Shown: positions 7,462 to 34,668, numbered from the stretch's first letter. The stretch: DNA of 64,000 bases from Prochlorococcaceae cyanobacterium (GCA_044235095.1 JBIIIC010000014.1:2382-66381), one strand, 5' to 3'. The notes: generated by a model not told the origin, from the letters alone. Made by a program: numbers and translations.

Positions 7462-7481
7462 ACCGGCACCGCCAGCAACCG

Positions 7482-12432: not shown

Positions 12433-16087
<3,655 letters not shown>

Positions 16088-16091
<4 letters not shown>

Positions 16092-16324
16092 GGCTCGTCA
16101 TCCAGCACCAGGCTCAGGGCCACCCCCACGTGCACCAGCACCCGATCGCCCAGCCGGGCCTCGGGCAGGCAGGCCAGGCTCACCTGCTGGCGCACGCCAC
16201 CGAAATCCACCTCAGCGCAGCGCCAGAGCGGATCGGGTGGGTCATCACGATCCGCATCGGCTTCACCGCCGGGCGCCGCACCCTGGCGGATCGCCACGAT
16301 CACCCCGGGGGTGGCCAGGCACAT
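16088..16324 (-). CDS. hypC: Hydrogenase assembly chaperone HypC
   Basis: 78 aa starting MCLATPG, the HypC signature. Confidence 0.9.
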
Positions 16325-16328
16325 GGGC

Positions 16329-19505: not shown

Positions 19506-21497
19506 GTGCAGAGCCTGCTGCTCGACATCGTGGTGATCTTCGGGATGTCGGTGCTGGCAGCGGTGGTGTGCCACAGGCTGCGGCTGCCGAGCTCGATCGG
19601 CCTGCTGCTGGCCGGCGTGCTGGCCGGCCCGGAACTGCTGGGCCTGATCCGCAACGTGCACGAGATCGAGCTGCTGGCCGAGATCGGCGTGGTGCTGCTG
19701 CTGTTCGTGATCGGCCTGGAGATCTCCGTGGCTGATGTGAAGCGGCTCAAGCGCCAGTTCACCGTGGGCGGCAGCGCCCAGTTCTTCGGCACGGCGCTGG
19801 TGGTGGCGCCGGTGCTGGCGGCCCTGGGGCTTGGGGCGGCGCAGAGCGTGTATCTGGGTTTCGTGGTGGCCCTCTCCAGCACCGCGATCGTGCTGCGGCT
19901 GCTGCAGGAGCGGGCCCAGCTGGAAACGCCCCACGGCCGCGCCGTGCTGGCCACGCTCATCTACCAGGACATCGGCGTGGTGCCGGTGATGCTGATGGCA
20001 CCGCTGCTGGCCGGCGGCGCTGCGGGCGCGGCGGGCGCGGCGGGGGCCGGGAATGGGCTGGCGGCGATCGCCAGCCTGATCGGCCGGATCGTGATCGTGG
20101 CCGTGTTCGGCTATGCGGCCTACCGCTGGGTGGTGCCCTGGGTGCTGGAGCGGATCACCCGCACCCGCAGCTCGGAAGCCTTCCTGCTTGGGGTGTTCAT
20201 GCTCTGCGTGGGCATCGCCGTGTTCACCCAGTCGCTGGGGCTGTCGCTGGCCTTGGGGGCTTTTCTGGCGGGCTTCATCCTGTCGGAATCGGATTACTCG
20301 CACCAGGCGGTGGCGGTGATGCTGCCGTTCCGCGACGTGCTGATGAGCCTGTTCTTCGTGTCGATCGGCATGCTGCTCGACATCAACTACCTGGCGCGCC
20401 ACCCGCTGGAGATCGGCCTGCTCACCCTCGGCGTGGTGGTGATCAAGCCGCTGGTGGGAATCGGTTCAGGCCTGCTGCAGGGGCTGCCGCTGCGCGGGGC
20501 CGTGCTGGCCGGCATGGCGATTGGCCAGGTGGGGGAGTTTTCGCTGGTGGCCACCAAGGCGGCGGTGGGCACCGGGCTGCTGGGCAGCGAGATCTTCCAG
20601 ATGGTGCTGGATGTGGCCGTGCTGAGCATGGTGCTCACGCCGCTGTTGATGGCGACGGCGCCGCGGCTGGCGGATCGGCTCAGCCGTACGCCCCTGGCCC
20701 GGCTGCAACACCGCTCGCTCGGCCCGACGTCTGGCGAGGGCGGGCCGGCCTATTGCAGCCACGTGCTGATCATCGGCTTCGGCGTGACCGGCCGCAACCT
20801 GGCCCACAGCGCCCGCCGCAGCGATGTGCCCTACGCAGTGGTGGAAACCAACGCGGCGATCGTGCGCCAGGGCCTGGCCGACGGTGAGCCGATCCACTAC
20901 GGCGACGCCAGCCAGGCGCCGATCCTGGAGCTGGTGCACGCCGAGAAGGCGCGGGCAATCGTGGTGGTGATCGACGATCCCGCCGGCGCCCGCCGCATCG
21001 TGGAGCTGGCGCGGCGCGTGGCGCCTGATGCCTACATCCTGGTGCGCAGCCGCTACCTGCGGGAGGTGGAGCCACTGATCAGCCTCGGCGCCGATGAGGT
21101 GATCGCCGATGAGCTGGAGGTGTCGATCGAGGTGTTCTCGCGGGTGCTGGCGCGGATGCTGGTGCCCCGCGACGACATCAAGCGCCTGATCGGCGAGGTG
21201 CGCGGCGACTGGCGGCAGATGGCCCGCGGCCTGGCCGCCGAGGCCACCTCGGTGCCCGATCTGCGCGTGGCCGTGCCGAATCTGGCCACCCATACCCTGC
21301 GGCTGTCGCCCCACTCACCGCTGGTGGGCCGCACGATCGCCACCAGCGGCCTGCGCCAGAGCCACGGCGTGACCGTGCTGGCGATCACCCGCGGCGGCAC
21401 ACCCCTGGCCAACCCCACGGGCGACACCAGCTTCCAGAAGGGCGATCTGGTGTTCGTGATCGGCCCGGAGCAGTGGGATCCGGCCTCGATCAACTGA
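19506..21497 (+). CDS. CPA2-family monovalent cation:proton antiporter with C-terminal RCK (TrkA-N and TrkA-C) domains, KefB-like
   Basis: 663 aa with a GTG start. About 12 TM segments, then VLIIGFGVTGRNLA (Rossmann, TrkA-N), then a TrkA-C-like end. Confidence 0.88.
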   Translation: MQSLLLDIVVIFGMSVLAAVVCHRLRLPSSIGLLLAGVLAGPELLGLIRNVHEIELLAEIGVVLLLFVIGLEISVADVKRLKRQFTVGGSAQFFGTALVVAPVLAALGLGAAQSVYLGFVVALSSTAIVLRLLQERAQLETPHGRAVLATLIYQDIGVVPVMLMAPLLAGGAAGAAGAAGAGNGLAAIASLIGRIVIVAVFGYAAYRWVVPWVLERITRTRSSEAFLLGVFMLCVGIAVFTQSLGLSLALGAFLAGFILSESDYSHQAVAVMLPFRDVLMSLFFVSIGMLLDINYLARHPLEIGLLTLGVVVIKPLVGIGSGLLQGLPLRGAVLAGMAIGQVGEFSLVATKAAVGTGLLGSEIFQMVLDVAVLSMVLTPLLMATAPRLADRLSRTPLARLQHRSLGPTSGEGGPAYCSHVLIIGFGVTGRNLAHSARRSDVPYAVVETNAAIVRQGLADGEPIHYGDASQAPILELVHAEKARAIVVVIDDPAGARRIVELARRVAPDAYILVRSRYLREVEPLISLGADEVIADELEVSIEVFSRVLARMLVPRDDIKRLIGEVRGDWRQMARGLAAEATSVPDLRVAVPNLATHTLRLSPHSPLVGRTIATSGLRQSHGVTVLAITRGGTPLANPTGDTSFQKGDLVFVIGPEQWDPASIN

Positions 21498-21866
21498 TCA
21501 GCGGTCACCCAGCTCCAGGGCCGCCAGCTCCAGCTCGCGGCGATAGAGCGGCAGGCCAGCGCGCGCGATGTGGGCCAGCAGTGCTGGATGGGAGATGGAA
21601 GCAAGGCGGGAGAGGTCGATCACCCAAGGCAGCAACAGATCATCGAGATCAGCATCGATGCGGGCCAGGGTGCCGGCGCTGAGAGCCGGACCGATCAGGG
21701 TGAGATCGATATCGGAGGCGGGGCGGTGGCGACCCAGGGCACGTGAGCCGTAGAGGATTGCGGATTCCACCTCGGGATAGGCGAGCAAGACCTGCTGAAT
21801 GGCGCGAATGGCGGAATCCGGCAGGCCCGTGGGTTGGGGGGTGGGTTTCGACGCAGTCGTGGTCAT
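21498..21866 (-). CDS. Nucleotidyltransferase-domain protein (MntA / HI0073-like antitoxin candidate)
   Basis: 122 aa with the pol-beta NTase motif YGSRALGRHRPASDIDL. ATGA overlap with the upstream HEPN gene. The C-terminal RELELAALELG is identical to the HypA C-terminus. Confidence 0.8.
   Translation of the reverse strand: MTTTASKPTPQPTGLPDSAIRAIQQVLLAYPEVESAILYGSRALGRHRPASDIDLTLIGPALSAGTLARIDADLDDLLLPWVIDLSRLASISHPALLAHIARAGLPLYRRELELAALELGDR
21508..21540. repeat. Copy A of a 33-nt imperfect direct repeat (hypA 3'-end-like sequence)
   Basis: CCCAGCTCCAGGGCCGCCAGCTCCAGCTCGCGG here against CCGAGCTCCAACGCGGCCAGCTCCAGCTCGCGG at 22327-22359. 29 of 33 positions are identical by my alignment. 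Confidence 0.85.
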
Positions 21867-22285
21867 TGCGAATCGTTGCTCAGCGCTGCGAAACGCTCCC
21901 GCAGCGCGCCAAACAGGAATGCAAAGCGATCGATCACATCGTGGGCGATCGCCTGGGCCTGCTCGAGGTTGTAGGTGTGCGAAGACTGATTGCGGGCCTT
22001 GATCATCGCCATCCAGCCCTCGCCATCGCTGATCAACCCATTCTGAAAGGCCAGGCGGGTGGCATCGCGTGAGCCGATGATCCCCTCTATCCCCTGGTAC
22101 TGCAGATAGTCCTTGAGCAGATTCCAGGCCAGTTCATGGGTGAATTCAAAGCTCTGAATCAGTCCCTGCTGCTCCAGTTCGCTCAGGGGGCGTTGTTGGG
22201 CCAGCTGCACGCCACGACCCAGCACCTGCAGCGCCCGCTGGAAGTTGTCGAACCGCTGCCGCCAGCGGAGATCCACCTCTGCCAT
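21863..22285 (-). CDS. HEPN-domain protein, nucleotidyltransferase substrate-binding HI0074 family (HepT-like toxin candidate)
   Basis: Third in-frame ATG of ORF 21863..22453 (alternatives 22303 and 22318). The MAEVDLRWRQRFDNFQRAL N-terminus is typical of the family. It has the Rx4H motif RNQSSH. Confidence 0.8.
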   Translation of the reverse strand: MAEVDLRWRQRFDNFQRALQVLGRGVQLAQQRPLSELEQQGLIQSFEFTHELAWNLLKDYLQYQGIEGIIGSRDATRLAFQNGLISDGEGWMAMIKARNQSSHTYNLEQAQAIAHDVIDRFAFLFGALRERFAALSNDSQ

Positions 22286-22322
22286 GGGGCCAGCCTTCAA
22301 CATGGCTCTGTGGAGCATCCTG

Positions 22323-22664
22323 TCAGCCGAGCTCCAACGCGGCCAGCTCCAGCTCGCGGCCCTGCAGCAGCTGGCGGCTGAAGGCGCCGCAGCGGGGGCA
22401 GAGGCAATCGCCCTGCCCGGCCTCGAAGGGCTGCTGGCAGGGCTCGCAGGCAAAGCGGGCGACCACGGTGTCGATCTGCAGCGCCGCCCCCTCGGCCGCT
22501 GTGCCGGCCATCACCACCTGATGGGCGAAGCGCAGCGCCTCCGGCTCCACGCCGGCCAGGCTGCCGATGCGCAGGCGGATCACGGCGATGCGGCCACCGC
22601 CATGGGCCCGGGCCTGCTCCAGGGCCAGATCGCGCACCGCTTCCATCAGGCTCAGCTCATGCAT
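22323..22664 (-). CDS. hypA: Hydrogenase nickel-insertion protein HypA
   Basis: 113 aa with an MHELSL start and a CEPC...CPRC zinc site. Confidence 0.92.
   Translation of the reverse strand: MHELSLMEAVRDLALEQARAHGGGRIAVIRLRIGSLAGVEPEALRFAHQVVMAGTAAEGAALQIDTVVARFACEPCQQPFEAGQGDCLCPRCGAFSRQLLQGRELELAALELG
22327..22359. repeat. Copy B of the 33-nt imperfect direct repeat (native hypA 3' end)
   Basis: See copy A at 21508-21540. The two copies bracket the complete HEPN/NTase gene pair, 819 bp apart. Confidence 0.85.
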
Positions 22665-23136
22665 GGCCAGCCAGCCACTGGCGCAGCAGGGCGCGGGCCT
22701 GGGGCAGGGCCGCGCGCAGCTCGGCTGAGAGCGCCGTGCCGTGATCGAAGGCCGTGGCCGGCACCAGCAGCAGCTGGGCCTCGGGGGCCCGACCGTAGAG
22801 GGCCTGGCTTACCGCAAGCAGGGCGGCCGGCTCCAGCCGGTGGCTGTCGGCGCCTGCCCCGGCGCTGGTGCCTGCGGCTGCGCCCGCCGGGCTGAGCGGC
22901 TGCAGCTGGGGCGCGGCCCCCGCAGGAGCCGGCCAGGCATCGATGAACAGCACCCGCTGAAGCCGAGCCAGTTCGGCGGCCAGCTCAGGGGTGAGCTGCT
23001 GCATGCAGCGCACCGCCACCGGGCCCGCGGGATCGGCGGCGGTGAGCACCGCCGCCTGCTCGGCCAGCAGGGCGCCCACGCCGTCGTCGCCGCGCAGGGG
23101 ATTGCCGATGCCGATCACCAGGCGACTGGCAGCCAT
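22657..23136 (-). CDS. hoxW: Hydrogenase maturation endopeptidase HoxW
   Basis: Internal ATG at 23136 gives MAASRLVIGIGNPLRGDDGVG, the HycI/HoxW protease signature. ATGA overlap with the hoxH stop and an 8-nt overlap with the hypA start. Confidence 0.85.
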   Translation of the reverse strand: MAASRLVIGIGNPLRGDDGVGALLAEQAAVLTAADPAGPVAVRCMQQLTPELAAELARLQRVLFIDAWPAPAGAAPQLQPLSPAGAAAGTSAGAGADSHRLEPAALLAVSQALYGRAPEAQLLLVPATAFDHGTALSAELRAALPQARALLRQWLAGHA

Positions 23137-24596
23137 CAATCCCGCACCCGCTCCGCCAGCACCCGCCCACCCGCATCCACCAGCGCAATCCGCAGCGGCA
23201 TCTGGCCGGCGGCGTGGGTGCTGCAGCTCAGGCACGGGTCGAAGCAGCGGATGCCCGCCTCCACCCGGTTGAGCAGGGGCTCGGGGATCTCGGCGCCCTC
23301 CGCCACCGGCTCGCTGATGAACTCCCGGGCGATCTGGGTCACGGTGCGGTTCATCGCCAGGTTGTTCTGGCCCGTGGCGATGATCAGGTTCACGCGGGTG
23401 ATCAGGCCCTCGTCGTTCACCCGGTAGTGGTGAAACAACGTGCCGCGCGGTGCCTCGCTCACCCCCACCGCCTCGTTGGCGTTGAGGCTGGCGTGGGCGC
23501 GGATGCGGCCACCCATCAGGCGCTCATCGGCCACCAGCTGCTCGATCCCCTCCAGGCAGGCCACGATCTCCACCAGCCGGGCATGGTGATACGCAAATGA
23601 GGAGGTCACAACCCTGCCGCCGCTCTCGGCCGTGCCGCTGCGCTGGCGAAACTCCGCCAGCTCCCGATCAGCCCACTCCGTGCCGATGTGCTCGCACCCA
23701 TTCAGCCGCGCCAGCGGGCCCACCCGGTAGATCCCCTCCGGATAGCCGAGCGGCTTGTAATAAGGAAACTTCAGGTAGCTCCAGCTCTCCACCGCCTCGC
23801 CCAGGAAATCGGCGTAGTCGTCTTCGCTGAGGCCGTCGGCCACGATCCGGCCCGTGCTGTCGATGAAGCGGATCGCCCCCTCGATGCACTCCCAGCTCCC
23901 ACCTGTGCCCACCAGGCCCATGAACAGCGACGGGAAATCGCCAAAGGTGCGCTGCTCCCGCTGCAGCGGCCCATCCAGCAGCGTTTTGTAGAGCTCCAGC
24001 GCCTTGGCCACCGTGGCCTTGGCCTCCGGCAGCCGCTGCAGGATCCAATCCCGGGCCTCCGCGCTCAACGGCGTGCGCACGCCACCGGGCACCGCCCAGG
24101 CCGAATGGATCCTGCGGCCGCCCAGCAGCTCCAGCACCTGCTGGCCGAACTGGCGCAGCCGGATGCCGGCGCGGGCCAGCTCCGGATCGGCAGCCATCAG
24201 GCCAAACACATTGCGCCGGGCCGGATCGCTCTCCCAGCCCAGCAGGAAATCGGGGCTGCTCAGATGAAAAAACGAGAGGGCGTGGCTCTGGCAGAGCTGG
24301 GCCAGGTTCAGCAGTCGCCGCAGCTGCCGCGCCGCCGGTGGCGGCTGCACCGCCAGCAGCTTGTCGCCGGTTTTCGCCGCGGCAAGGAGGTGGCTCACCG
24401 GACAGATGCCGCAGATCCGCGCCGTGATGCCCGCCATCTCCGTGAATGGATGGCCCTCGCAGAAGGTTTCAAACCCCCGATACTCCACAACGTGGAAGCG
24501 GGCATCGCTGAGCCGCCCGGCTTCATCGAGGTGCAGGGTGATCTTGGCGTGGCCCTCGATGCGGGTCACCGGGTCGATCGTGATCGTGCGGGTCAT
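23136..24596 (-). CDS. hoxH: Bidirectional [NiFe] hydrogenase large (catalytic) subunit HoxH
   Basis: Internal ATG at 24596 of the 797-aa track ORF. MTRTITIDPVTRIEGH start, RICGICPVSH N-terminal Ni-binding motif and DPCLSCSTH C-terminal motif. 486 aa. Confidence 0.95.
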   Translation of the reverse strand: MTRTITIDPVTRIEGHAKITLHLDEAGRLSDARFHVVEYRGFETFCEGHPFTEMAGITARICGICPVSHLLAAAKTGDKLLAVQPPPAARQLRRLLNLAQLCQSHALSFFHLSSPDFLLGWESDPARRNVFGLMAADPELARAGIRLRQFGQQVLELLGGRRIHSAWAVPGGVRTPLSAEARDWILQRLPEAKATVAKALELYKTLLDGPLQREQRTFGDFPSLFMGLVGTGGSWECIEGAIRFIDSTGRIVADGLSEDDYADFLGEAVESWSYLKFPYYKPLGYPEGIYRVGPLARLNGCEHIGTEWADRELAEFRQRSGTAESGGRVVTSSFAYHHARLVEIVACLEGIEQLVADERLMGGRIRAHASLNANEAVGVSEAPRGTLFHHYRVNDEGLITRVNLIIATGQNNLAMNRTVTQIAREFISEPVAEGAEIPEPLLNRVEAGIRCFDPCLSCSTHAAGQMPLRIALVDAGGRVLAERVRD

Positions 24597-24673
24597 CCCA
24601 CGGCGGATCAGTTGGGCGCGACCCTCAGCATGGCCACGCCGGACAGGCCTGCTGCACGGCCGGCAGCTGAACG

Positions 24674-25285
24674 CTACGGCTGACCCGCTGGTGGCCCCGG
24701 CGGCAGCTCGGGAGGCAGCCGCCCCTCCACCTCCAGGCGGAACACCATGATCCGCTGCACCACATACACCAGCTGGGCCGTGCTCCAGCCGGCCATCAGC
24801 ACCCCGTTCACCGCCTCCGCCACGCTCAGCAGGCGCCAACACTGGGGCAGGGTCATGTCGCCGTAGCCCACGGTGGTGAAGGTGATCCCGGAGAAATACA
24901 CGCTGGCCTCCAGCCCCGCAAACAGGCCCAGGCCGCGATACACCAGTGCCCAGAGCAGGATCTCCACCAGCAGGGCCAGGGCCGTGAGCAGGGCCATCGC
25001 CACGATCAGCAGCAGCCGCCGGGAGCTGCGCGGCGCGCACCAGGCATCCAGCCGCGGCCGGTGGGTGAGTTCGGCCTGGATCACCGTCACCACGCTGTGT
25101 ACCACTGCCGTGAGCACCAGCATCCCCACGGCGATCACCAGCTGGGTGCCCAACCCGGCACAGGCCGGGGCAGCCGGGGCCAGCGGGGCCTGGGCACCGC
25201 TCACCGGCAGGCCCGCCAGCAGGTGAACCACCAGGCCGGCCAGCAGGCCGATATAACTCCAACCCAGCAGCGCGCGGCGGCCCAT
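24674..25285 (-). CDS. Minimal potassium-channel family protein (pore TVGYGD, no ligand-binding domain)
   Basis: ATG at 25285 with GGAG 9 nt upstream, 5 nt after the upstream stop. 203 aa with TM helices and the selectivity-filter sequence FTTVGYGD. Confidence 0.75.
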   Translation of the reverse strand: MGRRALLGWSYIGLLAGLVVHLLAGLPVSGAQAPLAPAAPACAGLGTQLVIAVGMLVLTAVVHSVVTVIQAELTHRPRLDAWCAPRSSRRLLLIVAMALLTALALLVEILLWALVYRGLGLFAGLEASVYFSGITFTTVGYGDMTLPQCWRLLSVAEAVNGVLMAGWSTAQLVYVVQRIMVFRLEVEGRLPPELPPGPPAGQP

Positions 25286-25290
25286 GGCGC

Positions 25291-26385
25291 TCACTCCGGC
25301 AACGGCAGCCCGAGCCAGCGGGCCTCCTCGCGGGCGGCGGGCAGCAGCTGCGCCAGCTCCTCGGCACTGGCATTGGCGCTGGCGCGCAGCTGCCGGTAGC
25401 GGCGCAGGGCCGAACTGGGAAACAGCAGCAGGCCCACCGCCAGGGCCAGCCCACAGCCCAGCGTGTAATCGATCCAGCGGTGCGGGAGGTACCACGCCAC
25501 CAGCGGGCCGTAGCCAATGAAGGCCACACCGCTGGAGATCAGGGCGGTGCGCAGGTGATCGCCCCGATTCAGCGCCAGCACCAGCGCCGCCGTGCCCCCC
25601 ATCACCAGGCCGGTCTGCAGCGAGCCGAGCCCGAAGCTGTTGAACACCAGCAGCGGCATCAGGATGCCGAGGCTCACCCCGATCATCCGGTCGCGCACGC
25701 GAGCCAGCGTGGCGCCGATGCTGTCGTTGAGCAGCAGCACCACCCCGAAATACAGGTATTTCGGGGTGACGGCCCCCAGCCCTTCGCCGATCGCCAGCGC
25801 CAGCGACGCAAACACCAGTTTGCGCCAGAAGAAGGGCGAGGTGAGCCCCTGGCTGAGCCGCTGCGCCAGCGGCAGATCGCTCTCATCGGCAGCCGGCTCT
25901 GGCTTGGAGCCCTCCCCACCCGGGGCCAGCCCCGCCGGTGTGAAGGCCAGCTGCACCGCCGTGCCGATCGCCATGCCCAGACTGATGGCGAGCAGGTGAT
26001 CGCGCCAATCGCTCCAGCTGGGGGCACTGGCCAGCAGCGGCAGCACCCCTGCCACCGCCAGCACCCCGGAGAGCATCCGCAGCTTGGCCGGCAGCAGCAG
26101 CGCCAGCAGCTGCATCAGCGCCGCCACCAACCCAAACACGAACACCTGGGGCACCGCCTCCAGGGCCAGCCCCAGGCTGATCCCCACCGCCATGCCGAAG
26201 CCCAGCAGCACCAGCAGCACCGGGTAGATCGCCAGGGGCCAGCGGCTGAAATCCGGCCGCACCACCAGCACCGCGATCACCGCGCCATAGGCGATCGAAT
26301 CGCCGCCCAGGCCCACGCCCTGGCACACGGCCGCACTGAAGGCCGCCGCCAGGCCGATCACCAGGACCACGCGCAGCTGGGCCAT
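25291..26385 (-). CDS. Polytopic inner-membrane protein, FUSC/ArAE-like efflux component (assignment partly from context)
   Basis: 364 aa in two hydrophobic halves separated by a charged loop. It directly follows the HlyD gene and the small membrane protein, as in aaeXAB-type operons. Confidence 0.55.
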   Translation of the reverse strand: MAQLRVVLVIGLAAAFSAAVCQGVGLGGDSIAYGAVIAVLVVRPDFSRWPLAIYPVLLVLLGFGMAVGISLGLALEAVPQVFVFGLVAALMQLLALLLPAKLRMLSGVLAVAGVLPLLASAPSWSDWRDHLLAISLGMAIGTAVQLAFTPAGLAPGGEGSKPEPAADESDLPLAQRLSQGLTSPFFWRKLVFASLALAIGEGLGAVTPKYLYFGVVLLLNDSIGATLARVRDRMIGVSLGILMPLLVFNSFGLGSLQTGLVMGGTAALVLALNRGDHLRTALISSGVAFIGYGPLVAWYLPHRWIDYTLGCGLALAVGLLLFPSSALRRYRQLRASANASAEELAQLLPAAREEARWLGLPLPE

Positions 26386-26568
26386 TCAGGGGCGCGGCGG
26401 GCGCAGCGCCTGGGCCCAGCCCAGCAGCAGCACCACCACCAGCAGCGCCACCCAGAACCACAGCCGCGGCGGCGCACTCACGCTGGCGATCCCCAGCAGC
26501 AGCAGGGCCAGCCAGGGGGCCGGCTGGCGCCAGGGCCCCAGCCAACGTTCACCGGGTGATCGGCTCAT
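26386..26568 (-). CDS. Small two-TM membrane protein (AaeX-like by position)
   Basis: 60 aa. ATGA overlap with the HlyD stop, and its own stop abuts the ATG of the next gene. Confidence 0.5.
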   Translation of the reverse strand: MSRSPGERWLGPWRQPAPWLALLLLGIASVSAPPRLWFWVALLVVVLLLGWAQALRPPRP

Positions 26569-27776
26569 CGCTCCGCCCCCCCGAGCCAGCGCAGAAACGG
26601 CAGCACGAAACTCATCAGCGAACGGCGTTCGACTTCCACCTTCGCCCTGGCGGGGGTGCCGTTTTCGAGGGGCAGATCCGGCCCTCGGCCGCTGCTCCAG
26701 CGCAGGCCACTGGGGGTGGGGGCCACCTCCAGCTCCACCGTCACCAGTTGCACCGGGGCCGTGAACTTGTCGCCGGCGATCTCCACCGGGTCGCCCCCCT
26801 CGCCGAAGGCGGCCTGGCGGCTGCGGGTCATCAGGCTCTGGGCCAGCTCTGGATCGCCCACCACCCGGCTCACCTCGGCCAGATCCGCCGCCGCCGGCGA
26901 GATGGCCACGATCCGGCCCTCAAGCAGGCCATAGCGCTCCGCCGTGCCGCCGTAGCGGTCGCGCGTCTGCAGCAGTGGATCGAGCTGGATGGGCTCACCC
27001 ACCCGCAGCCGCACCGCGTCGGCGTCGCTGAACAGGGCCGTGGCCAGCCGCGGCCGCTCCTCCTGCCGGGGTCCGGGGCCCAGCGTGCCCAACCGCTGGC
27101 CGGGGATCACCGCCTGGCCCGGGGCCACCGCCAGGCTCAGCAGCACCCCCGAGCGCGGGGCCAGCACCTGCTGGGAATCGCGCTGCCCTTCCAGCTCGGC
27201 CCGGTTCACATCCAGCTGGGCCAGCTGCCCCTCCAGCGCCCTGATCTGGCCCACGTTGCGCAGATAGAGGTCTTGGGCGCCCACCCACAGGGGGCTGTAG
27301 CGCGGGATCACCTCCTCGCGGCGGAGGCTGTCGAGGGCCCGCATCTGTTGCAACACCGGCTTGTTGGTGGTGCGCAGAGCCGCGATCTGGGCCTCAATCG
27401 CCTCCTGCTGGCGGCTGATGGCCAGCTTCTGGCGCTCCAGGGCACCGGGATCGGGGCCCACCGCCCCGGCCCCGGCCGCCGCCTGGTCCACCCGGTTGAG
27501 GGTGAGCAGCAGCTCGCCCCGCTCCACGGCGTCACCCACCCGCCGATGCAGCATCTGCACCTGCCCCGCCGAGCGGGCGTAGAACCCCACCCGACTGCCG
27601 GGCTGCAGCAGCACCGCGCTGCCCTCCACCTTCACCGCCACCACCGGCGAGAGCGCCCACACGCCACAGATCGCCGTGACCACGGCCATCGGTAGCAGCT
27701 GCGGCACAGACAGGCGCGGCTCGGAATCCAATGCGGTTGTCGCCGCGGCTTCGGCGGCGGTTTCACCTGCGGCCAT
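26565..27776 (-). CDS. HlyD-family membrane fusion / periplasmic adaptor protein
   Basis: Internal ATG at 27776 of the 881-aa track ORF. N-terminal TM segment, a lipoyl-like segment (GDAVERGELLLTL), a long coiled coil and a beta-barrel (APRSGVLLSLAVAPGQAV). Confidence 0.85.
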   Translation of the reverse strand: MAAGETAAEAAATTALDSEPRLSVPQLLPMAVVTAICGVWALSPVVAVKVEGSAVLLQPGSRVGFYARSAGQVQMLHRRVGDAVERGELLLTLNRVDQAAAGAGAVGPDPGALERQKLAISRQQEAIEAQIAALRTTNKPVLQQMRALDSLRREEVIPRYSPLWVGAQDLYLRNVGQIRALEGQLAQLDVNRAELEGQRDSQQVLAPRSGVLLSLAVAPGQAVIPGQRLGTLGPGPRQEERPRLATALFSDADAVRLRVGEPIQLDPLLQTRDRYGGTAERYGLLEGRIVAISPAAADLAEVSRVVGDPELAQSLMTRSRQAAFGEGGDPVEIAGDKFTAPVQLVTVELEVAPTPSGLRWSSGRGPDLPLENGTPARAKVEVERRSLMSFVLPFLRWLGGAER

Positions 27777-27842
27777 GGCGCCTGGCAATCCCGCCGCCCG
27801 TGAAGTGGCCTTACGGTACCGGCAATTTCCCGCATCAAGCCG

Positions 27843-29261
27843 TTGGGTCGCCGGACAGGCTGGTGGAGCACCATTGGGCTGATCACCCTGGCCCTGGCCC
27901 CTCTCCAGCCCGCCTGCGCCCAGCCCGCCCCGCTGCAGCTCAGCCGCCAGCAGGCTCTCGAGCTCGGGCTGAACGCCTCGCTCAGCCTGCGCGGCAGGGC
28001 CCTGGCGGTGGAGGAGAACCAGTCCCTGGTGGGGCTGGCCCGCTCCCGTTTCCTGCCCAAACTGGACCTGGTGGCCCTCGGCACCTTTGCCCAGGTGGAC
28101 ACCAATGTGGGCTTCATCTCCAACCTGCCCACGATCGGCGATCTGAGCCTCAACCTCAATGGCGACAGCTCCGCTCTCATCACCAACACCTTCGTGAACC
28201 TGGGGCTGGTGTTCACGATGCCCCTGGTGGATTTCGGCCGGGGACCGCTGCAGCAGGCGGCCCGGGCCGACCTGGAGTCCTCCCGGGCCGAGCAGGCCGA
28301 GCAGGAGCGGCGCACCCGCTTCGAGATCCTCAACCGCTACCTGGCGGCCCAGTACACCGCCGCTCTGATCCCGGTGTGGCAGAGCTCCCTGACCCTGTCG
28401 CAAACCCTGCTGCGCGATGTGAATGCCATCCGGCGCGAGGGGTTGGCGCCGCGCATCGACACCTTCCAGGCCGAAGCGCAGGTGCAGGCGGATCTGCAGG
28501 GCCTGGCCGAAGCCCGCGCCCAGCACGCGATCGCCCTCAGTGCCCTGGCCCGCAGCCTCAACCTGCCCGCCGAAGCGGCGGTGCAGACCACCGACCCACT
28601 CCTGCCTGACCCCGCCTGGCCACTCTCGCTGGAGGGAACGCTGCAGCAGGCCCTCAACCAACGCCCGGCCCTGGAGACCCTGCAGCGGCAGGTGGCGGCC
28701 CAGCAGGCCCGGGTGAAGCTGGCGCGGGCCACGCGACTGCCGAGCGTGGGCCTGCTGCTGGGCGGCGGCATCAGCGGCGACTGGCTGAGCGTGCCCAACG
28801 CCAGCACCACCGCCTCCGTGGGTGGAGCTGGCCTGCCCGCCCTCAGCAGCAGTGGCAGTGCCTCCGGCAGCTTCGTGGACTGGGGCGCGGCCATCACGGT
28901 GCGCCAATCCCTCTACGACGGCGGCCAGAGCCGTGAAACGGTGGCCCTGGCCCAGCGCCGGGCCCAGCAGGCGGAGCTGGCGGTGGAGGAAGCCCAGCAG
29001 GGGATTATCCAGAGCGTGGAAACCTGGTACGCCACCCACCAGGCCAGCGCAGCCCAGACCCAGGCCACCGCCGCAGCGATCAAGGCCAATGAACGGTCGG
29101 TGCGGGATGGCCTCCTGCGCTATCGGGCCGGACTGGCACCGATCACCGAGGTGCTGCTGGCCCAGCGCAACCTGCAGGTGGCGCGCGCCGCGGAGGCCAC
29201 GGCCATCCACCGCTGGAACCTGAGCCGGGCGGCGCTGGAACTGGAGACCGGCCAGCCCTGA
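27843..29261 (+). CDS. TolC-family outer-membrane efflux protein
   Basis: 472 aa with a signal peptide (LALAPLQPACAQP) and two repeated OEP-type halves. Divergent from the HlyD gene across a 66-nt spacer. Confidence 0.85.
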   Translation: MGRRTGWWSTIGLITLALAPLQPACAQPAPLQLSRQQALELGLNASLSLRGRALAVEENQSLVGLARSRFLPKLDLVALGTFAQVDTNVGFISNLPTIGDLSLNLNGDSSALITNTFVNLGLVFTMPLVDFGRGPLQQAARADLESSRAEQAEQERRTRFEILNRYLAAQYTAALIPVWQSSLTLSQTLLRDVNAIRREGLAPRIDTFQAEAQVQADLQGLAEARAQHAIALSALARSLNLPAEAAVQTTDPLLPDPAWPLSLEGTLQQALNQRPALETLQRQVAAQQARVKLARATRLPSVGLLLGGGISGDWLSVPNASTTASVGGAGLPALSSSGSASGSFVDWGAAITVRQSLYDGGQSRETVALAQRRAQQAELAVEEAQQGIIQSVETWYATHQASAAQTQATAAAIKANERSVRDGLLRYRAGLAPITEVLLAQRNLQVARAAEATAIHRWNLSRAALELETGQP

Positions 29262-29271
29262 CTGGCCAGCC

Positions 29272-29844
29272 CTAGCCGAACCGCAACTGCGCGGCGCCCT
29301 GCTGCCGCGGCCGCTCGCCGAGCAGCAACGGCTCCAGAAAACCGCGGATGCGCTCGGCCGACGGCGGACAGCCGGGCAGATACAGATCCACCGGAATCAC
29401 CTCATGCAGCGGCAGCACCCGCTCCAGCAGCTCCGGCACGATCCCCGGCGCGTGGGGGTGCTGGGCGCCCGTGTCGGCCAGCTCCACGTAGCCGCGATCC
29501 AGCACGCTCTGGCGCGAGCCCCCATCCACGTGCGCCCAGAGGTTGCGCAGGCCCGGCACGTTGGCGGTCACGGCGCAGTCGCCGAACGACACCACCAAAG
29601 CGCTGCGCGCCCGCAGCTGCAGGGCCAGCTCGAGGTTGTCGGCGTTGGCCACCGCCCCCTCCACCAGGCACACATCCACCCCTTCGGGAAACACCTTCAC
29701 GTCGCTGGCCACCGGCGAGAACACCACCTCCACCCGCTCGGCCAGCTTGAACAGCCACTCGTCGAGATCGAGAAACGACATGTGGCAGCCGCTGCAGCCG
29801 GCCAGCCACACCGTGGCGAACCGCAACTTGGCGGTGGCCGTCAC
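29272..29844 (-). CDS. hoxY: Bidirectional [NiFe] hydrogenase small subunit HoxY
   Basis: GTG at 29844 preceded by [37 protein letters not shown]-terminus and LPGCPP motif. GTGA overlap with the hoxU stop. Confidence 0.9.
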
Positions 29845-30572
29845 GGCGCCTCCCCCTGATTGAGCCAATGCCGCTGCTCGCGGGCCATCCGCAGCAGCTG
29901 GGCCCGCTCGCGGTGGGGCTGCTTCTCGGCGGTGGTGTCGTCTCTGGCGAACAGGGCGCCGGTGGGGCACACATCCACGCACTTGCCACAGTTGGTGCAG
30001 GCCTCCACCTCTCCCCAGGGCTGATCGAGCCCGGCGATGATCCGGCACTGGGCGCCGCGGTGCGCCACATCCCACACATGGGCCCCCTCGATCTCGTCGC
30101 ACACGCGCACGCAGCGGGTGCAGAGGATGCAGTGGTGGTGGTCGAGGGCGAACAGGGGATGGGAGGCATCCACCCGCCGCTGGGGATATTGGTAGGGAAA
30201 GCGGGAGTGGTCCATCCCCACCGTCACCGCCACGTCCTGCAGTTCGCAGGCGCCGTTGGCCACGCAGAAGGCGCAGATGTGGTTGCCCTCGGCGAAGAAC
30301 AGCTCCACCGCCATGCGCCGCCACTCGCGCAGCTGGAGGGTCTGGGTGAGGATCACCAGCCCCTCGCTCGCCGCCGTGGCGCAGGCAGGCTGCAGTTTGC
30401 CGCTGCCCTCCACCTCCACTAGGCACAGCCGGCAGGCGCCTACCGGCGTGAGGCCATCGAGATGGCAGAGGGTGGGCAGCTCGGCGCCGGCGGCCCGGGC
30501 GGCATCCAGCAGCGAGGCTCCGGCCGGCACCGCCACCTCCACGCCATCCACCCGCAGGGTGAGCACGCTCAT
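29841..30572 (-). CDS. hoxU: Diaphorase subunit HoxU (NuoG-like Fe-S protein)
   Basis: Internal ATG at 30572. [10 protein letters not shown] start, 2Fe-2S and 4Fe-4S Cys motifs ([35 protein letters not shown]). ATGA overlap with hoxF. Confidence 0.95.
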
Positions 30573-32212
30573 GGCCCGGCCTCCTGCAGGTTGCAGGCAT
30601 CGAGCGGTTCGCACTGCCGGGGTGCCCGGCAGGCCGCCTGATACTCCTGGCGGAAATGGCGCAGGGTGCTCAGCACAGGATTGGGTGCCGCCTGGCCCAG
30701 GCCGCAGAGGCTGGTGGCCTGCACCATGGCGCACAGCTGCTCCAGCGTCTCCAGGTCGGCTGGGGTGGCCCGCCGCTCCACGAAGCGATCGAGCAGCGCC
30801 GCCAGCTGCACCGTGCCGGCCCGGCAGGGCACGCACTTGCCGCAGCTCTCCTGCACGCTGAAGCGCATGAAGTGGCGCGCCACCTCCGGCATCGCCGTGG
30901 CCTCGCCCATCACCACCATGCCGCCCGAGCCCATCATCGAACCGAGCGCCCGCAGGTTCTCGTAGTCCACCGGCGTGTCGAGCAGCGTCGCGGGAATGCA
31001 ACCGCCCGAGGGCCCGCCGGTCTGCACGGCCTTCACACCCCCATCCGGCCCATCGGCGCCGGGCACGCCCCCGCCCATCGCCACCACCACGGTGCGCAGG
31101 CTGGTGCCCATCGGCACCTCCAACAGGCCGGTGCGCTCCACCGCGCCGGAGAGGGCAAACACCTTGGTGCCCCTGCTGGCGCCGGTGCCCATGGCGGCAT
31201 ACCAGTCGCCCCCCTCCCGCAGGATGGCCGGGATCGCCGCCAGCGTCTCCACGTTGTTGATCAGGGTGGGCGCCTGCCACAGGCCCGCCTCGGCGGGATA
31301 GGGGGGGCGCGGCCGGGGTGTGCCGCGCTGGCCCTGGATCGAGGCCAGCAGTGCCGTTTCCTCGCCGCACACGTAGGCACCGGCCCCCACCCGCACCTCC
31401 AGGCGCAGGTTGAAGCGGCTGCCGGCCATGCCGGCGCCGAGCAACCCCTTGGCGCGCGCCTGCTGGAGCGCCAGCCGCAGCCGGGCGATGGCCAGGGGAT
31501 ATTCGGCACGCACGTACACGTAGCCGTGCTCGGCGCCAACGGCGAAGGCGGCCAGGGCCAGTCCTTCGATCAGCCGGTGTGGATCGCCCTCCAGCACGGC
31601 ACGGTCCATGAAGGCACCGGGGTCGCCCTCATCGGCGTTGCACACCACGAAGCGCGGCCCGGGGGGCTGCAGGGCCACCGTGTCCCACTTGAGGCCGGTG
31701 GGGTAGCCGGCACCGCCACGGCCGCGCAGCCCACTGCGTTTCACCTGCTCCCGCACCTGCTCCGGCGTGCACTCCGCCAGCACCCGCTGCAGCTGGCCGT
31801 AGGTGCCATGGGCCAGGGCATCGTCGATCGACCCGGGATCCACCAGCCCGCAGGTTTCGAGCACCACCGGCCGCTGCAGGGCAAAAAAAGGCTGGGCCAG
31901 ATCCAGCTGCCGCTCCGGCAGGCTGTTGCCCAGCCCGGCGGCACGCTCCAGCAGCGCCTCCGCCTCCTGAGGCAGCAGGCCGCCATGGAGGGCCAGCGGC
32001 TGCCAGCCGCTGGCTCCGGCTTCCCGGTGATCCTCCGCCACCAGCGGTCCCTTGCCGCAGAGCCGCAGACAGCCCACGGCCTTGATCTGCACCACCCCGG
32101 CCGCCCCGCCCAGCCGATCGCGGGCCGCCTCCAGGGCCGCCTGCAGCTCCTGGCCGCCGGCAGACCGGCAGCCGCTGGCGGTGCAACAACGCAGTCGCGT
32201 GGCCGTGCCCAT
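30569..32212 (-). CDS. hoxF: Diaphorase subunit HoxF (NuoF-like, NAD(P)H/FMN-binding)
   Basis: ATG at 32212 preceded by GGGGAGG. NuoF-like [16 protein letters not shown] and [10 protein letters not shown] motifs. Confidence 0.95.
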
Positions 32213-32216
32213 CAGC

Positions 32217-32696
32217 TCACCTCCCCAGCCCCAGAGCCGCCAATCGCGCGCCCAGCGCCTGGGGGTCATCCACCGGCAGCCGGGGCTCAAGCCGGCCATC
32301 CACCACCAGCACCGGCGCCTGGCCGCAAGCCCCCAGACAGCTCACCGTTTCCAGGGCCCAGGTGCCGTTGCCGGCCGGATCGTCGAGCCGCAGGCCGAGC
32401 AGCGGCTCCAGACAACGGGCCAGCTCCGCCCCACCCTTCACGAAACAGGCGGTGCCCAGACACACCGCACAGCGGTGGGCGGTGGGCGGCGCCAGCCGGA
32501 ACAGGTGGTAGAAGCTCGCCACCCCATACACCCGGCTGAGCGGCAACTGGAATTCCCGCGCCACCTCCGCCAGCGCAGCCCGGGACAGAAAGCCATGGAT
32601 CTCCTGCACCTGGTGCAGCACTTCGATCAACGCGTCGGCCTGGCCGCGCTGCTGCCGCACCAGCCGGCTGATGGCGCTGGGCGCGGCTGCTCCCAC
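32217..32696 (-). CDS. hoxE: Diaphorase subunit HoxE (NuoE-like 2Fe-2S); start uncertain
   Basis: NuoE-like motifs YHLFRLAP, CLGTACFVKG and CLGACGQAPV. I favour GTG at 32696 (GGAGGA 6 nt upstream), giving 159 aa. The track ORF extends to ATG 32867, which would overlap the upstream gene by 56 nt. Confidence 0.85.
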   Translation of the reverse strand: MGAAAPSAISRLVRQQRGQADALIEVLHQVQEIHGFLSRAALAEVAREFQLPLSRVYGVASFYHLFRLAPPTAHRCAVCLGTACFVKGGAELARCLEPLLGLRLDDPAGNGTWALETVSCLGACGQAPVLVVDGRLEPRLPVDDPQALGARLAALGLGR

Positions 32697-32773
32697 AGGC
32701 ACTCCTCCGACTCTCTTCGGGATAGCAAGGGCTGGTGGCGCCGGCAGGCGAACCCGGCGGGCCCGACACGTCT

Positions 32774-32809
32774 GTTTGCGAACCGGTTGGCGAACAGGTT
32801 TGCGAACCG
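32774..32809. repeat. Three tandem 12-mers upstream of hoxE
   Basis: Plus strand reads GTTTGCGAACCG / GTTGGCGAACAG / GTTTGCGAACCG. The repeats begin 3 nt downstream (on the minus strand) of the stop codon at 32812-32814, and their near edge is about 78 nt upstream of the favoured hoxE start. Confidence 0.8.
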
Positions 32810-32811
32810 GC

Positions 32812-33096
32812 TCAGGTTTCGTTGCCGCCGAACATGTCGTCGTAGCCCTCCTCGGGCATGAATTCATTCCAGCCCGGACTGGCCTGCTGCAGCAGCCCGT
32901 AGCGGGCGTCCTCGTCGTCCATCAGGGTGTTGCCGGTGGGGCGGGTGTCGCAGGTGATGCCGCCGTCGCCGCTGGGCTGGCAGTTGTCAAACACCACATC
33001 GGCCCGCAGCGGAGCCGGTGCCAGCAGTGGGATCGGCAGCACCATCAGCAGGCCGGTGAGCGCCAGCAACCAGCGTGCACTGCGCGGGGATCCCAT
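32812..33096 (-). CDS. Small secreted hypothetical protein (94 aa)
   Basis: Internal ATG at 33096. MGSPRSARWLLALTGLLMVLPIPLLAPAPLRA looks like a signal peptide. The mature part is acidic and has two Cys residues. Confidence 0.45.
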   Translation of the reverse strand: MGSPRSARWLLALTGLLMVLPIPLLAPAPLRADVVFDNCQPSGDGGITCDTRPTGNTLMDDEDARYGLLQQASPGWNEFMPEEGYDDMFGGNET

Positions 33097-33169
33097 GCCC
33101 AGGCCCCCCGTGCTCGGGCACCGGGGGCGCGCCAACTGAGAGGATGGGGAGGCGCAAGCATCTGGTGCG

Positions 33170-33286
33170 ATGTACACCGACTGGACGGCCGTCATCCTGC
33201 TGCTGCTGACCGCAGCACCCCTGGCAGTGGTGGTGGGCACCGCCGGCTTCTTCATCTGGCAGCAGCGGCGGAAGCAGCTGCGCTGA
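33170..33286 (+). CDS. Possible 38-aa single-TM peptide
   Basis: ATG...TGA encoding MYTDWTAVILLLLTAAPLAVVVGTAGFFIWQQRRKQLR. It is below the track's size cut-off, has no clear SD, and overlaps a convergent ORF. Confidence 0.2.
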   Translation: MYTDWTAVILLLLTAAPLAVVVGTAGFFIWQQRRKQLR

Positions 33287-33548
33287 ACTGAGACCCGCTG
33301 AGCTGAGACGCGCTGAGCTCGCCGGCTTCGAACTGGGTGGCGTTGCGCAGGGCTTCGGCCCGTAGTGCCGCCAGCTTCGCCATGGTGATGGCGGCTTTCA
33401 GCGACGGTGTCTGCCCCTGCCCCAGGCAGGGCAGACAGGTGCGGTAGCGCTGACCGCCGAGCCTCAGGGTGCCGCTGCCGCCGCAGTGGGGGCACATGGA
33501 AGCCTGGCTGGATGGGTTCGCGGAACGGGCGGGATCAACCGTCATCAC
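33252..33548 (-). CDS. Small protein with DnaJ-type CxxCxGxG zinc-finger repeats
   Basis: 98 aa containing CPHCGGSG and CLPCLGQG. The tail has pentapeptide-like repeats encoded by roughly 15-nt tandem repeats at about 33281-33325. Confidence 0.4.
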   Translation of the reverse strand: MMTVDPARSANPSSQASMCPHCGGSGTLRLGGQRYRTCLPCLGQGQTPSLKAAITMAKLAALRAEALRNATQFEAGELSASQLSGSQFSAAASAAAAR

Positions 33549-33621
33549 AGGGCCCGCCTCAGCGGGCTTTGCAGTGCCTCCAGTGTGGTGGCCCCAACTG
33601 CCTGCGATCCCGAAGTCTTCC

Positions 33622-34668
33622 TTAAGTCTTGACGGGCCCGCCCAGGGCCCGCCGGAAGCGCTCCAGGGTGAGCTCCTGCCGCAACTCCTCCACGCTGAGC
33701 CGCGCGCCTGCCGGCACCAGCGCCAGGCTGGCGGCCAGCTCGCCCACCACCGCCGCCGCGTCCAGGCCCCGCTGCCGCAGGCCAGCGAGCCCCTCGGCCC
33801 CCTCCCGCTTGCTCAGGCGCGCACCACCGCCATCGCACCAGAGCGGCACGTGGCCGTAGCGCGGCGGAGCGGCCCCCAGTGCCCCCATCACCGCCACCTG
33901 GGCGGCGGTGGCAGCCCAGAGATCGGCCCCACGCAACACGTCGCTGATGCCAAGGGCCAGCTCATCCACCGCCGTGGCCAGGTGATAGGCGAGGAAGCCA
34001 TCGGCCCGCCGCAGCACCACATCGCCCACGGCGGTGGGGCCATCACAGTGGCCCGGCGCGGCATAGCGCTCCTGCCAGCGGAGCTCCCCGGGGCCCAGAC
34101 GCAGGCGCCAGCTGGGCAGGCGCCCAGCCTCAAGGCCCCAGTGGGGCGGCCGGGTGCGGCACCAGCCGGGATACACGGGCCAGCTGCCATGGGGCGCCGA
34201 GATATCCGCCAGCAAACGGCGACTGCAGCGGCAGGGATAGAGATGGCCTGAACGCCGCAAGGCCGCCAGCACGGAGCCGTAGAGGCCGCGCCGGCGACTC
34301 TGCAACAGGGCAGGGCCATCCCAGTGCAGGCCCAGCCAGCGCAGATCAGCTTCGATCGCCTCGATCGCGCCGGGGCGGTTGCGGGGGGTGTCGAGGTCGT
34401 CGTGGCGGAGGAGCCACGCCCCGCCGCTGAGGCGGGCTTCCAGCCAGCTGAGCAGAGCCGTGCGCAGGTTGCCGCGGTGCAGCGGGCCGCTGGGGGATGG
34501 CGCAAAGCGACCGCGATAGCCCTGGCCCCGCTGGGCCAGCCCCGCCCCCAGCTGGGCCTGGATGTGGGCGGGCAGGGCGGCGAGCACCGGGCGAAGCGAC
34601 CATCGCTGCCCCCATCCAAACCCTTCAGCCGCAGCGATGAAGCCAACGCCTGAGCTGGAACCCGGCAC
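33622..34668 (-). CDS. gluQ: Glutamyl-Q tRNA(Asp) synthetase
   Basis: RFAPSPSGPLHRGNLRTALLSWL class-I HIGH-like region and a GluRS catalytic-domain-like body without an anticodon-binding domain. Start uncertain (ATG 34668 or GTG 34587). Confidence 0.85.
   Translation of the reverse strand: MPGSSSGVGFIAAAEGFGWGQRWSLRPVLAALPAHIQAQLGAGLAQRGQGYRGRFAPSPSGPLHRGNLRTALLSWLEARLSGGAWLLRHDDLDTPRNRPGAIEAIEADLRWLGLHWDGPALLQSRRRGLYGSVLAALRRSGHLYPCRCSRRLLADISAPHGSWPVYPGWCRTRPPHWGLEAGRLPSWRLRLGPGELRWQERYAAPGHCDGPTAVGDVVLRRADGFLAYHLATAVDELALGISDVLRGADLWAATAAQVAVMGALGAAPPRYGHVPLWCDGGGARLSKREGAEGLAGLRQRGLDAAAVVGELAASLALVPAGARLSVEELRQELTLERFRRALGGPVKT

Follow-up and report, generated by a model that had tools for sequence, protein, structure and literature searches.

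A picocyanobacterial hox operon with an exporter and potassium channel gene cluster between hoxY and hoxH

Genes of the split hox locus

A 64,000-nucleotide (nt) stretch of DNA from a Prochlorococcaceae cyanobacterium (GCA_044235095.1 JBIIIC010000014.1:2382-66381), here called the window, carries the genes of a bidirectional [NiFe] hydrogenase of group 3d, with hoxH, which encodes the large catalytic subunit, separated from hoxEFUY by five membrane-protein genes, here called the module. These encode a TolC-like outer-membrane factor (tolC), an HlyD-like periplasmic adaptor (hlyD), a membrane protein of 60 amino acids (aa; p60), a FUSC-like inner-membrane protein (fusc), and a K+ channel (kch). 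Open reading frames (ORFs) were called in six frames on their high third-position GC, together with Pfam and NCBIfam scans, with domain matches supporting the full Hox set of HoxE, F, U, Y, and H plus HoxW (Table 1). Gene order, ORFs, and domain matches confirm the hoxY/hoxH split described in the original prediction, which was made from the sequence alone, and the five intervening genes have the identities first read for them. The junctions are also as then described, except that hoxH and hoxW, read directly in the sequence, overlap by a single nucleotide (TGATG) and not by ATGA.

Both Ni-Fe ligand motifs are present in HoxH (RICGICPVSH at residue 60, DPCLSCSTH at residue 453), and hoxH has a ratio of nonsynonymous to synonymous substitution rates (dN/dS) of 0.11. 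The protein is 92–95% identical to those of Cyanobium, which, to judge by sequence, is the source organism of the window, and 95% identical to that of the nearest relative, L086, which lacks the module (labels of this form denote the loci compared). The hoxY tail in the window matches the hoxY tail of L086, with the C-terminus of HoxY intact in both, and GC content is ~70% across the region, uniform at about 0.70–0.73.

Table 1. Features of the split hox locus, in window coordinates and in order along the hox strand.
Feature	Position	Strand	Description
hoxE	32217..32696	-	159-aa diaphorase subunit; PF01257 in the identical L081 gene; 4-nt gap to hoxF
hoxF	30569..32212	-	Complex1_51K and NADH_4Fe-4S domains; ATGA overlap with hoxU
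hoxU	29841..30572	-	Fer2_4, NADH-G_4Fe-4S_3, and Fer4_Nqo3 domains; GTGA overlap with hoxY
hoxY	29272..29844	-	Small subunit, 190 aa; Oxidored_q6, 98 bits; intact C-terminus ..QLRFG*
Local tandem duplication	29250..29275	.	hoxY stop/tolC stop junction; 14-nt period, 10-nt exact core
tolC	27843..29261	+	TolC-like outer-membrane factor; Pfam OEP, 147.8 bits; convergent with hoxY, divergent from hlyD
Conserved motif ATTGCCGGTACCGTAAGGCCACTTC	27802..27826	-	tolC–hlyD intergenic; candidate -10 TACCGT (27813-27818), TAnnnT type
hlyD	26565..27776	-	HlyD-like membrane-fusion (periplasmic adaptor) protein, 403 aa; HlyD_3, 34.2 bits
p60	26386..26568	-	60-aa two-helix membrane protein; ATGA overlap with hlyD; 0 nt to fusc
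fusc	25291..26385	-	Half-size FUSC-like inner-membrane protein, 364 aa; FUSC_2, 29.6 bits (cut-off 25.6)
kch	24674..25285	-	K+ channel, 203 aa; Ion_trans_2, 43 bits; TTVGYGD filter in translation
77-nt kch–hoxH spacer	24597..24673	-	Decayed hoxY tail, mini-ORF, and ancestral spacer remnants
Decayed hoxY 3' tail GGCGTGGCCATGCTGAGG	24623-24640	-	18-mer identical in L094, L100, and L137
Mini-ORF MLRVAPN*	24608-24631	-	Ends 11 nt before hoxH ATG
Ancestral hoxY–hoxH spacer remnant TGATCCGCC	24602-24610	-	Also in L001 and L007 hoxY–hoxH spacers
hoxH	23136..24596	-	Large catalytic subunit, 486 aa, intact; NiFeSe_Hases and PF27537 HoxH
hoxW	22657..23136	-	Maturation protease; TIGR00072, 69.8 bits; 1-nt TGATG overlap with hoxH
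hypA	22323..22664	-	PF01155, 103 bits; 8-nt overlap with hoxW

To judge by its components, the module would be a FusC/AaeAB-style four-component exporter plus a channel, with outer-membrane factor, periplasmic adaptor, and inner-membrane component encoded together in 64 loci. The matches of the TolC-like protein to TIGR01844 and TIGR01845 lie under their cut-offs, as does the best NCBIfam match of the HlyD-like protein (NHLM_micro_HlyD, 95 bits), and p60, for which the Pfam and NCBIfam scans returned no family match and no DUF1656, is kept at the same position in modules of 46–100% identity. The FUSC_2 match of the FUSC-like protein covers residues 195–317 only, with scores for ArAE_1 and YccS/YhfK under their cut-offs, and at 364 aa the protein lacks the full-length FUSC architecture (about 650–730 aa, with two membrane and cytoplasmic domains). 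Classical full-length FUSC proteins match it at about 26% identity over its C-terminal half, and its own family is very narrow, with 53 representatives in 1.84 billion proteins, three of them full-length clusters. AlphaFold2 models the protein as two helical bundles with a short linker between them, at a mean predicted local distance difference test (pLDDT) score of 65.9 from a 17-sequence alignment, with Foldseek comparison to the PDB giving only matches of E ≥ 0.05 and template modelling (TM) scores of about 0.2, and a profile search of PDB sequences giving no match. Neither the structure nor the sequence matches indicate a substrate specificity for the exporter.

The fusc/kch junction is 5 nt long, with a GGAG overlapping the stop codon, and the module genes are under purifying selection, with dN/dS values of 0.12–0.48 against four relatives that also carry the module between hoxY and hoxH. 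All five genes encode transport proteins, with no recombinase or transposase gene, terminal inverted repeats, or attC site found in the module, and the sole repeat flanking it is a duplicated hoxY tail.

Distribution, boundaries, and exchange of the module

The exact HoxH sequence occurs on 12 metagenome contigs, with identical gene order on the two independent Joint Genome Institute (JGI) contigs that reach far enough upstream, L081 (72.8 kilobases, kb) and L082 (16.4 kb), and with three shorter contigs stopping within the channel gene, 77 nt before hoxH. An assembly chimera is ruled out by these independent contigs of identical layout. A foreign, non-cyanobacterial origin of the module is likewise ruled out, both by the uniform GC content and by its homologues, all of which are picocyanobacterial, the FUSC-like protein having many relatives of 65–93% identity.

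The same layout recurs elsewhere. The first contexts looked up (L094, L092, L093, and complete genomes) all had the module between hoxY and hoxH, the complete genomes being Synechococcus sp. CCY9201, OY986434.1, and CBW1108. A metagenome scan with a FUSC alignment gave 72 further loci, onto which all twelve window proteins were mapped, and besides the window the module loci comprise 17 that are embedded in hox, 47 that are free-standing, and 16 too short to classify. The embedded loci (L092-L100, L112, L114, L115, L120, L137, and L147) include CP060396.1, CP060395.1, and OY986434.1; L108, recognised by its spacer, is also embedded and is additional to the 17. The 47 free-standing loci carry the same tolC / hlyD-p60-fusc(-kch) cluster with no hox gene nearby, with kch present in the closer clusters and none detected where the FUSC protein has ≤62% identity to that of the window. 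The hoxY/hoxH split filled with an exporter, for which the original prediction named no precedent, is thus shared by at least 17 other loci. A neutral insertion, offered there as an alternative, is refuted as a one-off event by this recurrence but favoured as a tolerated hitch-hiker.

The comparison of hoxY–hoxH intervals that had been proposed gives a divided result, with the module-split arrangement in those at least 17 other loci, and hoxY directly beside hoxH in 44 of 44 picocyanobacterial loci among the matches listed in a scan of species-representative genomes. In more distant cyanobacteria, hoxY–hoxH gaps of 0.3–1.8 kb among the matches listed agree with known interspersed ORFs. A phylogeny and distribution of the efflux genes unrelated to hox, coupled with independent transcription of hoxH, had been named in advance as grounds for abandoning a hox-linked efflux operon; the distribution is indeed partly unrelated, given 47 free-standing loci and a majority of hox operons without the module.

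The limits of the insertion are visible against the nearest relative. In L086, hoxEFUYH-hoxW-hypA is contiguous, with only GCC between the hoxY stop codon and the hoxH ATG, and nucleotide homology between the window and L086 is lost at 29276 and found again from 24596. All embedded loci have, in the spacer before hoxH, a GGCCATGCTG(G/A)GG... block, which corresponds to the 3' end of hoxY (..G P A M L G/R F G stop). The spacer, 38–95 nt long in embedded loci with intact kch, consists largely of this hoxY relic, which is unambiguous in L147, L097, and L114: 68 of 69 positions in the L147 spacer agree with the real hoxY tail and spacer of L023, which lacks the module, and comparison of a locus's own hoxY tail with its own spacer beats shuffled sequences in L097 (1/300) and L114 (0/300). 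The L095 spacer similarly agrees with L006 at 35 of 37 positions. No hoxY-tail-like sequence was found at the ends of the free-standing modules that were searched. On this comparative evidence the decayed tail marks an insertion into a once-contiguous hoxYH. Because the relic precedes hoxH and the hoxY and tolC stop codons nearly coincide (10 nt apart in the window, and overlapping, abutting, or up to 45 nt apart in embedded loci), the insert extends essentially from the stop codon of tolC to that of kch, between two copies of the hoxY tail. Two nested tail remnants occur in L095 and in the L097/L099/L114 group, which hints at more than one integration. A mini-ORF starting from the old Met codon persists in most embedded loci and overlaps the hoxH ATG in L120, where the spacer is 38 nt; speculatively, this hoxY-derived mini-ORF may preserve translational coupling for hoxH.

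A 12-nt direct repeat at the tolC/hoxY stop junction had been proposed as a possible insertion scar. The repeat exists, with an exact core of 10 nt (AGGGCTGGCC on the hox strand, at 29250-29259 and 29264-29273), and belongs to a common class, since 22 such short near-tandem repeats occur in the window, where Markov simulations give 2.5 +/- 1.6. L094 has a single GGCTGGCC with overlapping hoxY and tolC stop codons, and L120 a single copy with abutting stop codons, the window carrying an extra 10–14 nt copy of the tolC terminus. With the repeat single-copy in these loci and present at one end of the module only, and with the real footprint being the hoxY tail before hoxH, the proposal of a scar fails; the repeat is best read from these alignments as a local duplication that separates the two stop codons.

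The history of the module was followed with neighbour-joining trees. In that of HlyD and FUSC, embedded modules all fall in one clade with the free-standing L104 as its neighbour, and the HoxH tree mixes operons with and without the module, placing L094 and L100 on a deep branch. Between the window and L094 the Hox proteins are 54–71% identical and the module proteins 80–93%, with nucleotide identities of 0.61–0.83 in hoxF/U/Y, 0.83–0.95 from exactly the tolC stop codon, and ~0.75 in hoxH. The pattern is reversed against L120 and L095, with hox more similar than the module. The simplest reading of these sequence comparisons would be a single capture followed by block exchange among hox operons and occasional loss. 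The split layout is a real operon variant, both inherited and exchanged.

Several embedded copies show further change. L137 (2451 nt) appears mosaic, with kch 87% and hoxH 97% identical to the window, and FUSC 65% and p60 52%, which suggests a recombination breakpoint between fusc and kch. The kch gene is deleted in L099, L100, and L147, and tolC is split in L093. In L097 (Synechococcus sp. CBW1108, CP060395.1; regions 5191-7960 and 13570-18700), two transposase genes (DUF772/DDE and IS1595) interrupt tolC, with more insertion sequence (IS) elements and a HicAB pair after hoxH, and with hoxW and hypA not detected downstream; this hox locus appears to be undergoing erosion, its IS elements being apparently secondary insertions.

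Transcription of hoxH and competing explanations

The tolC–hlyD intergenic region holds a motif, CCGGTAC(C/G)GTAAGGCC with TAnnnT, that is common to embedded and free-standing modules, its TAnnnT hexamer varying among TACCGT, TACGGT, TACCCT, TATCCT, and TAATTT. In the window the TACCGT candidate sits about 36 nt before the hlyD ATG, and the conserved hexamer is a putative -10 region belonging to the module itself. Within the motif, at window positions 27810-27820 and at homologous sites, lies the near-palindrome CCGGTACCGT (GGTACC core), which could be a regulator binding site rather than, or besides, a -10 element.

A consensus scan found no terminator-like and no sigma-70-like promoter site in the kch–hoxH spacer or at the hoxY/tolC junction, and the spacer contains neither a U-tract nor a TAnnnT hexamer, upholding the original description of 77 nt free of terminator-like sites. 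Terminator-like matches in the 13-kb scan lie inside genes only and at the rate of shuffled sequence, an Rfam search of positions 21000-34000 at E ≤ 0.1 gave no match, and the spacer shows no unusual folding (z = -1.46). It is plausible, and a reasonable inference, that hoxH is co-transcribed with the module, because the genes from the module to hypA lie close together and neither a terminator nor a promoter can be recognised ahead of hoxH. The most economical arrangement would be read-through from the promoter of the module, since the spacer lacks a recognisable promoter or terminator and any TAnnnT and is largely relic. As tolC is convergent with hoxY, a transcript from the hox promoter would be antisense to tolC; cyanobacteria are not known to have Rho, and with the two stop codons ≤45 nt apart such transcripts may continue antisense through tolC.

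A LuxR-type (GerE) regulator gene lies at 7892-8656 on the minus strand of the window, just beyond hypE, with homologues of 77–80% identity about 3 kb upstream of tolC in the free-standing loci L103, L116, L119, L124, and L127 (around positions 900-1900). It may encode a regulator of the module, or the shared neighbourhood may be a coincidence. A tblastx comparison of the window with free-standing loci for an empty native module site found this gene alone shared, and not in collinear arrangement.

Taken together, we regard it as probable that an autonomous cluster was captured at the 3' end of hoxY and has since been inherited, exchanged, and tolerated. The five genes would form a self-contained picocyanobacterial transport cluster, located elsewhere in the genome in most relatives and equipped with its own promoter-like element. 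One lineage of this cluster would have been captured at the hoxY 3' end of a contiguous hoxEFUYH-hoxW-hypA operon, leaving a decaying duplicate of the hoxY tail before hoxH. The embedded version would then have been inherited, would also have moved between divergent hox operons as a sharply bounded block, and was probably lost again in some lineages. Transcription of hoxH-hoxW-hypA most likely proceeds by read-through that starts at the module promoter, at the hox promoter with passage across tolC in antisense, or at both, with the mini-ORF derived from hoxY possibly keeping hoxH translationally coupled, and the insertion would be tolerated and not required for hydrogenase function.

Several observations weigh against this account. 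No embedded locus occurs in the 44 picocyanobacterial species of the species-representative genomes among the matches listed, and the neighbour-joining trees, which carry no support values, leave the number of events uncertain. L101 and L102, which have no hox flanks, nest inside the embedded clade, so that a single capture may need an additional escape event, and the exchanged block carries no recombinase. The short relic of the window is not significant alone, with its own hoxY tail against its own spacer equalled in 160 of 500 shuffles, and is accepted because of the comparison with other loci. Finally, the consensus scan is weak at 70% GC, with no promoter found in 13 kb, and an internal promoter inside kch is possible.

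Such a promoter would belong to an arrangement of insulated units, in which hoxH-hoxW-hypA is driven from the 3' part of kch or the spacer and transcription of the module depends on neither hox half. Other cyanobacteria are known to have hox genes split into transcription units with promoters of their own, the consensus promoter scan is insensitive in this genome, and the GGCGTGGCCATGCTGAGG block is conserved beyond its neighbours; however, descent from the hoxY tail explains that conservation, no TAnnnT hexamer occurs in the spacer, and in L120 the spacer shrinks to 38 nt with the mini-ORF overlapping the hoxH ATG. We consider this arrangement unlikely.

Adaptive wiring, in which the hydrogenase has the exporter and K+ channel as working partners, for example in the release of organic-acid anions with K+ as counter-ion during dark fermentation from a shared anoxia-responsive transcript, seems to us unlikely. 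It would account for the persistence of the layout under purifying selection across lineages whose FUSC proteins are 65–83% identical, and for the entry of the block into very divergent hox operons at the same junction. The wider locus, moreover, is a fermentation island with pyruvate:ferredoxin oxidoreductase (PFOR), hypA, hypB, hypC, hypD, hypE, hypF, and a KefC-like K+ efflux gene, and FusC/AaeAB-type pumps export carboxylic acids (PMC7682875), AaeAB being termed a 'metabolic relief valve' in work cited there. Against this, the module is missing from most hox operons of close relatives and most modules (47 loci) stand without hox, unrelated multi-gene insertions split the hox operons of sister clades (L009-type, and L170/L172), and no match, structural or sequence, gives a substrate specificity. 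The suggestion that the arrangement links hydrogenase activity to export of a fermentation product or to ion balance finds no direct support, and is weakened by the loss of kch in three embedded loci and the IS-disrupted or split tolC of CBW1108 and L093. A tolerated hitch-hiker is therefore favoured over a dedicated hydrogenase partnership. A bolder combination, in which a recombinase-free cassette repeatedly enters and leaves hox operons at the hoxY 3' end with the duplicated tail as attachment site, and is kept because exporter and channel under the hox or anoxia programme would aid end-product disposal and charge balance, is in our estimation improbable.

A neutral one-off event confined to this genome, or a chimeric assembly, in either case with the 12-nt repeat as scar, would fit the module-less nearest relative L086 and the absence of the layout from the 44 picocyanobacterial species representatives among the matches listed, but can practically be discounted in view of the independent contigs, three complete genomes, and 17 embedded loci of the same layout, and of a repeat that is absent from other embedded loci and present at one end only.

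Other genes in and around the hox operons can be set beside these explanations. In the window, a gene for a KefC/KefB-like CPA2 K+ efflux protein with TrkA domains (19506-21497, plus strand) lies between hypA and hypB, keeps its position in L086 and L087, and is a second K+-handling gene in the hox-hyp-PFOR locus. The PFOR gene (nifJ-type, about 1220 aa) and that of a dihydroorotate-dehydrogenase-like flavoprotein lie between hypC and hypD on the minus strand (12429-16097 and 11398-12579), and the whole 25-kb stretch reads, by its predicted gene content, as a fermentation and hydrogen island. Genes for an MntA-like nucleotidyltransferase and a HI0074/HepT-like substrate-binding subunit (type VII toxin-antitoxin; 21498-22303, minus strand) directly follow hypA and form a second lineage-specific insertion, with an indel at 21542-22322 relative to L086 and homology resuming at 21541. 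In L009, L010, L012, L013, L016, and L018, of a Synechococcus/Cyanobium subclade, hoxE (about 1400) and hoxF (about 7090) are ~5.6 kb apart, the L009-type insert comprising two opposite-strand cyclic di-GMP (c-di-GMP) genes (GGDEF; PAS-GGDEF-EAL) and one same-strand gene. The hoxH/hoxW junction is also an insertion site, since about 2–4 kb of other genes separate hoxH from hoxW in L170 and L172 (both 9512-13200) and in L002 and L004, with HoxH 90–93% identical; the L170/L172 insert includes an opposite-strand protein of 749 aa with no Pfam match. Elsewhere in the window, seven short tandem repeats (periods 12–18 nt) occur within about 900 nt at 58961-59848, probably in a repetitive protein-coding gene.

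Relation to known hox operons and exporters

Picocyanobacteria abound in fresh and brackish water, and a sizeable number of them have the gene of the catalytic subunit downstream of an exporter/channel cassette. Stoichiometric synthesis of HoxY and HoxH would then hinge on transcription of the cassette, which is relevant for reading transcriptomes and for engineering. The cassette is also a clean case, in nature, of several genes exchanged together as a block whose ends fall exactly on gene boundaries and which has no recombinase. It points, moreover, to a narrow FUSC-like exporter family, so far uncharacterised, that is confined to picocyanobacteria. A link of the module to hydrogen metabolism is speculative; if true, it would tie H2 metabolism to the export of metabolites and K+, the picocyanobacterial Hox hydrogenase being linked to dark-anoxia survival (PMC13588713, PMC9361551).

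The hoxY/hoxH split itself is not new. In Synechocystis 6803, ORFs between hoxY and hoxH belong to one polycistronic transcript with a promoter upstream of hoxE (PMC4264147), and gene IDs place one to three genes between hoxY and hoxH in PCC 7002, Acaryochloris, and Cyanothece (PMC5186783, supplementary table), with hoxY and hoxH adjacent in the picocyanobacteria PCC 6307 and WH5701 (PMC5186783). The remark in the original prediction that an exporter-filled split was not known to it stands in part, none having been found in the searchable literature, but hoxY/hoxH splits in general were already on record (PMC5186783). The searchable literature yielded no description of an exporter-plus-channel split of a hox operon, of its picocyanobacterial recurrence, or of its block-wise exchange. 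The window resembles Synechocystis in having non-hox ORFs between hoxY and hoxH; however, in place of two small, uncharacterised same-strand ORFs there are 4.7 kb with five membrane-protein genes, one of them convergent with hoxY, in a block that carries a promoter-like element of its own, also occurs independently at other loci, and is exchanged as a whole.

Other hox loci are split in different ways, as in Synechococcus elongatus, where hoxEF is separate from hoxUYHW-hypAB. One of the groups of hox organisation described by Puggioni et al. 2016 (PMC5186783) has hoxEFUY apart from hoxH-hoxW. As in these loci, the structural genes of the window do not form one uninterrupted cluster, but whereas the halves there lie in different genome regions, here only 4.7 kb, filled by a defined cassette, separates them on one strand.

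The module also resembles the FusC/AaeAB/FuaABC group of multi-component efflux pumps (FUSC, aromatic acid exporter), with which it shares an outer-membrane factor, an adaptor, a small protein of about 60–67 aa, a FUSC-family protein, and overlapping start and stop codons. The 'tetrapartite' bucl8-fusCDE pump of Burkholderia consists of an outer-membrane protein, FusC, a small 67-aa protein, and an adaptor (PMC7682875), and p60 is analogous in position to the small FusD protein of such pumps (PMC7682875). Unlike these pumps, the module has a half-size inner-membrane protein (364 versus about 650–730 aa) barely above the FUSC_2 threshold, a small protein without DUF1656 or any other family match, a different gene order, and an attached K+ channel gene. 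A further counterpart is the free-standing cluster of Cyanobium, Synechococcus, and Vulcanococcus, whose five (or four) genes agree with those of the module in identity, order, and orientation, as does the intergenic motif; in contrast to the embedded module, these clusters have no hox flanks, and several lie about 3 kb from a LuxR-type regulator gene.

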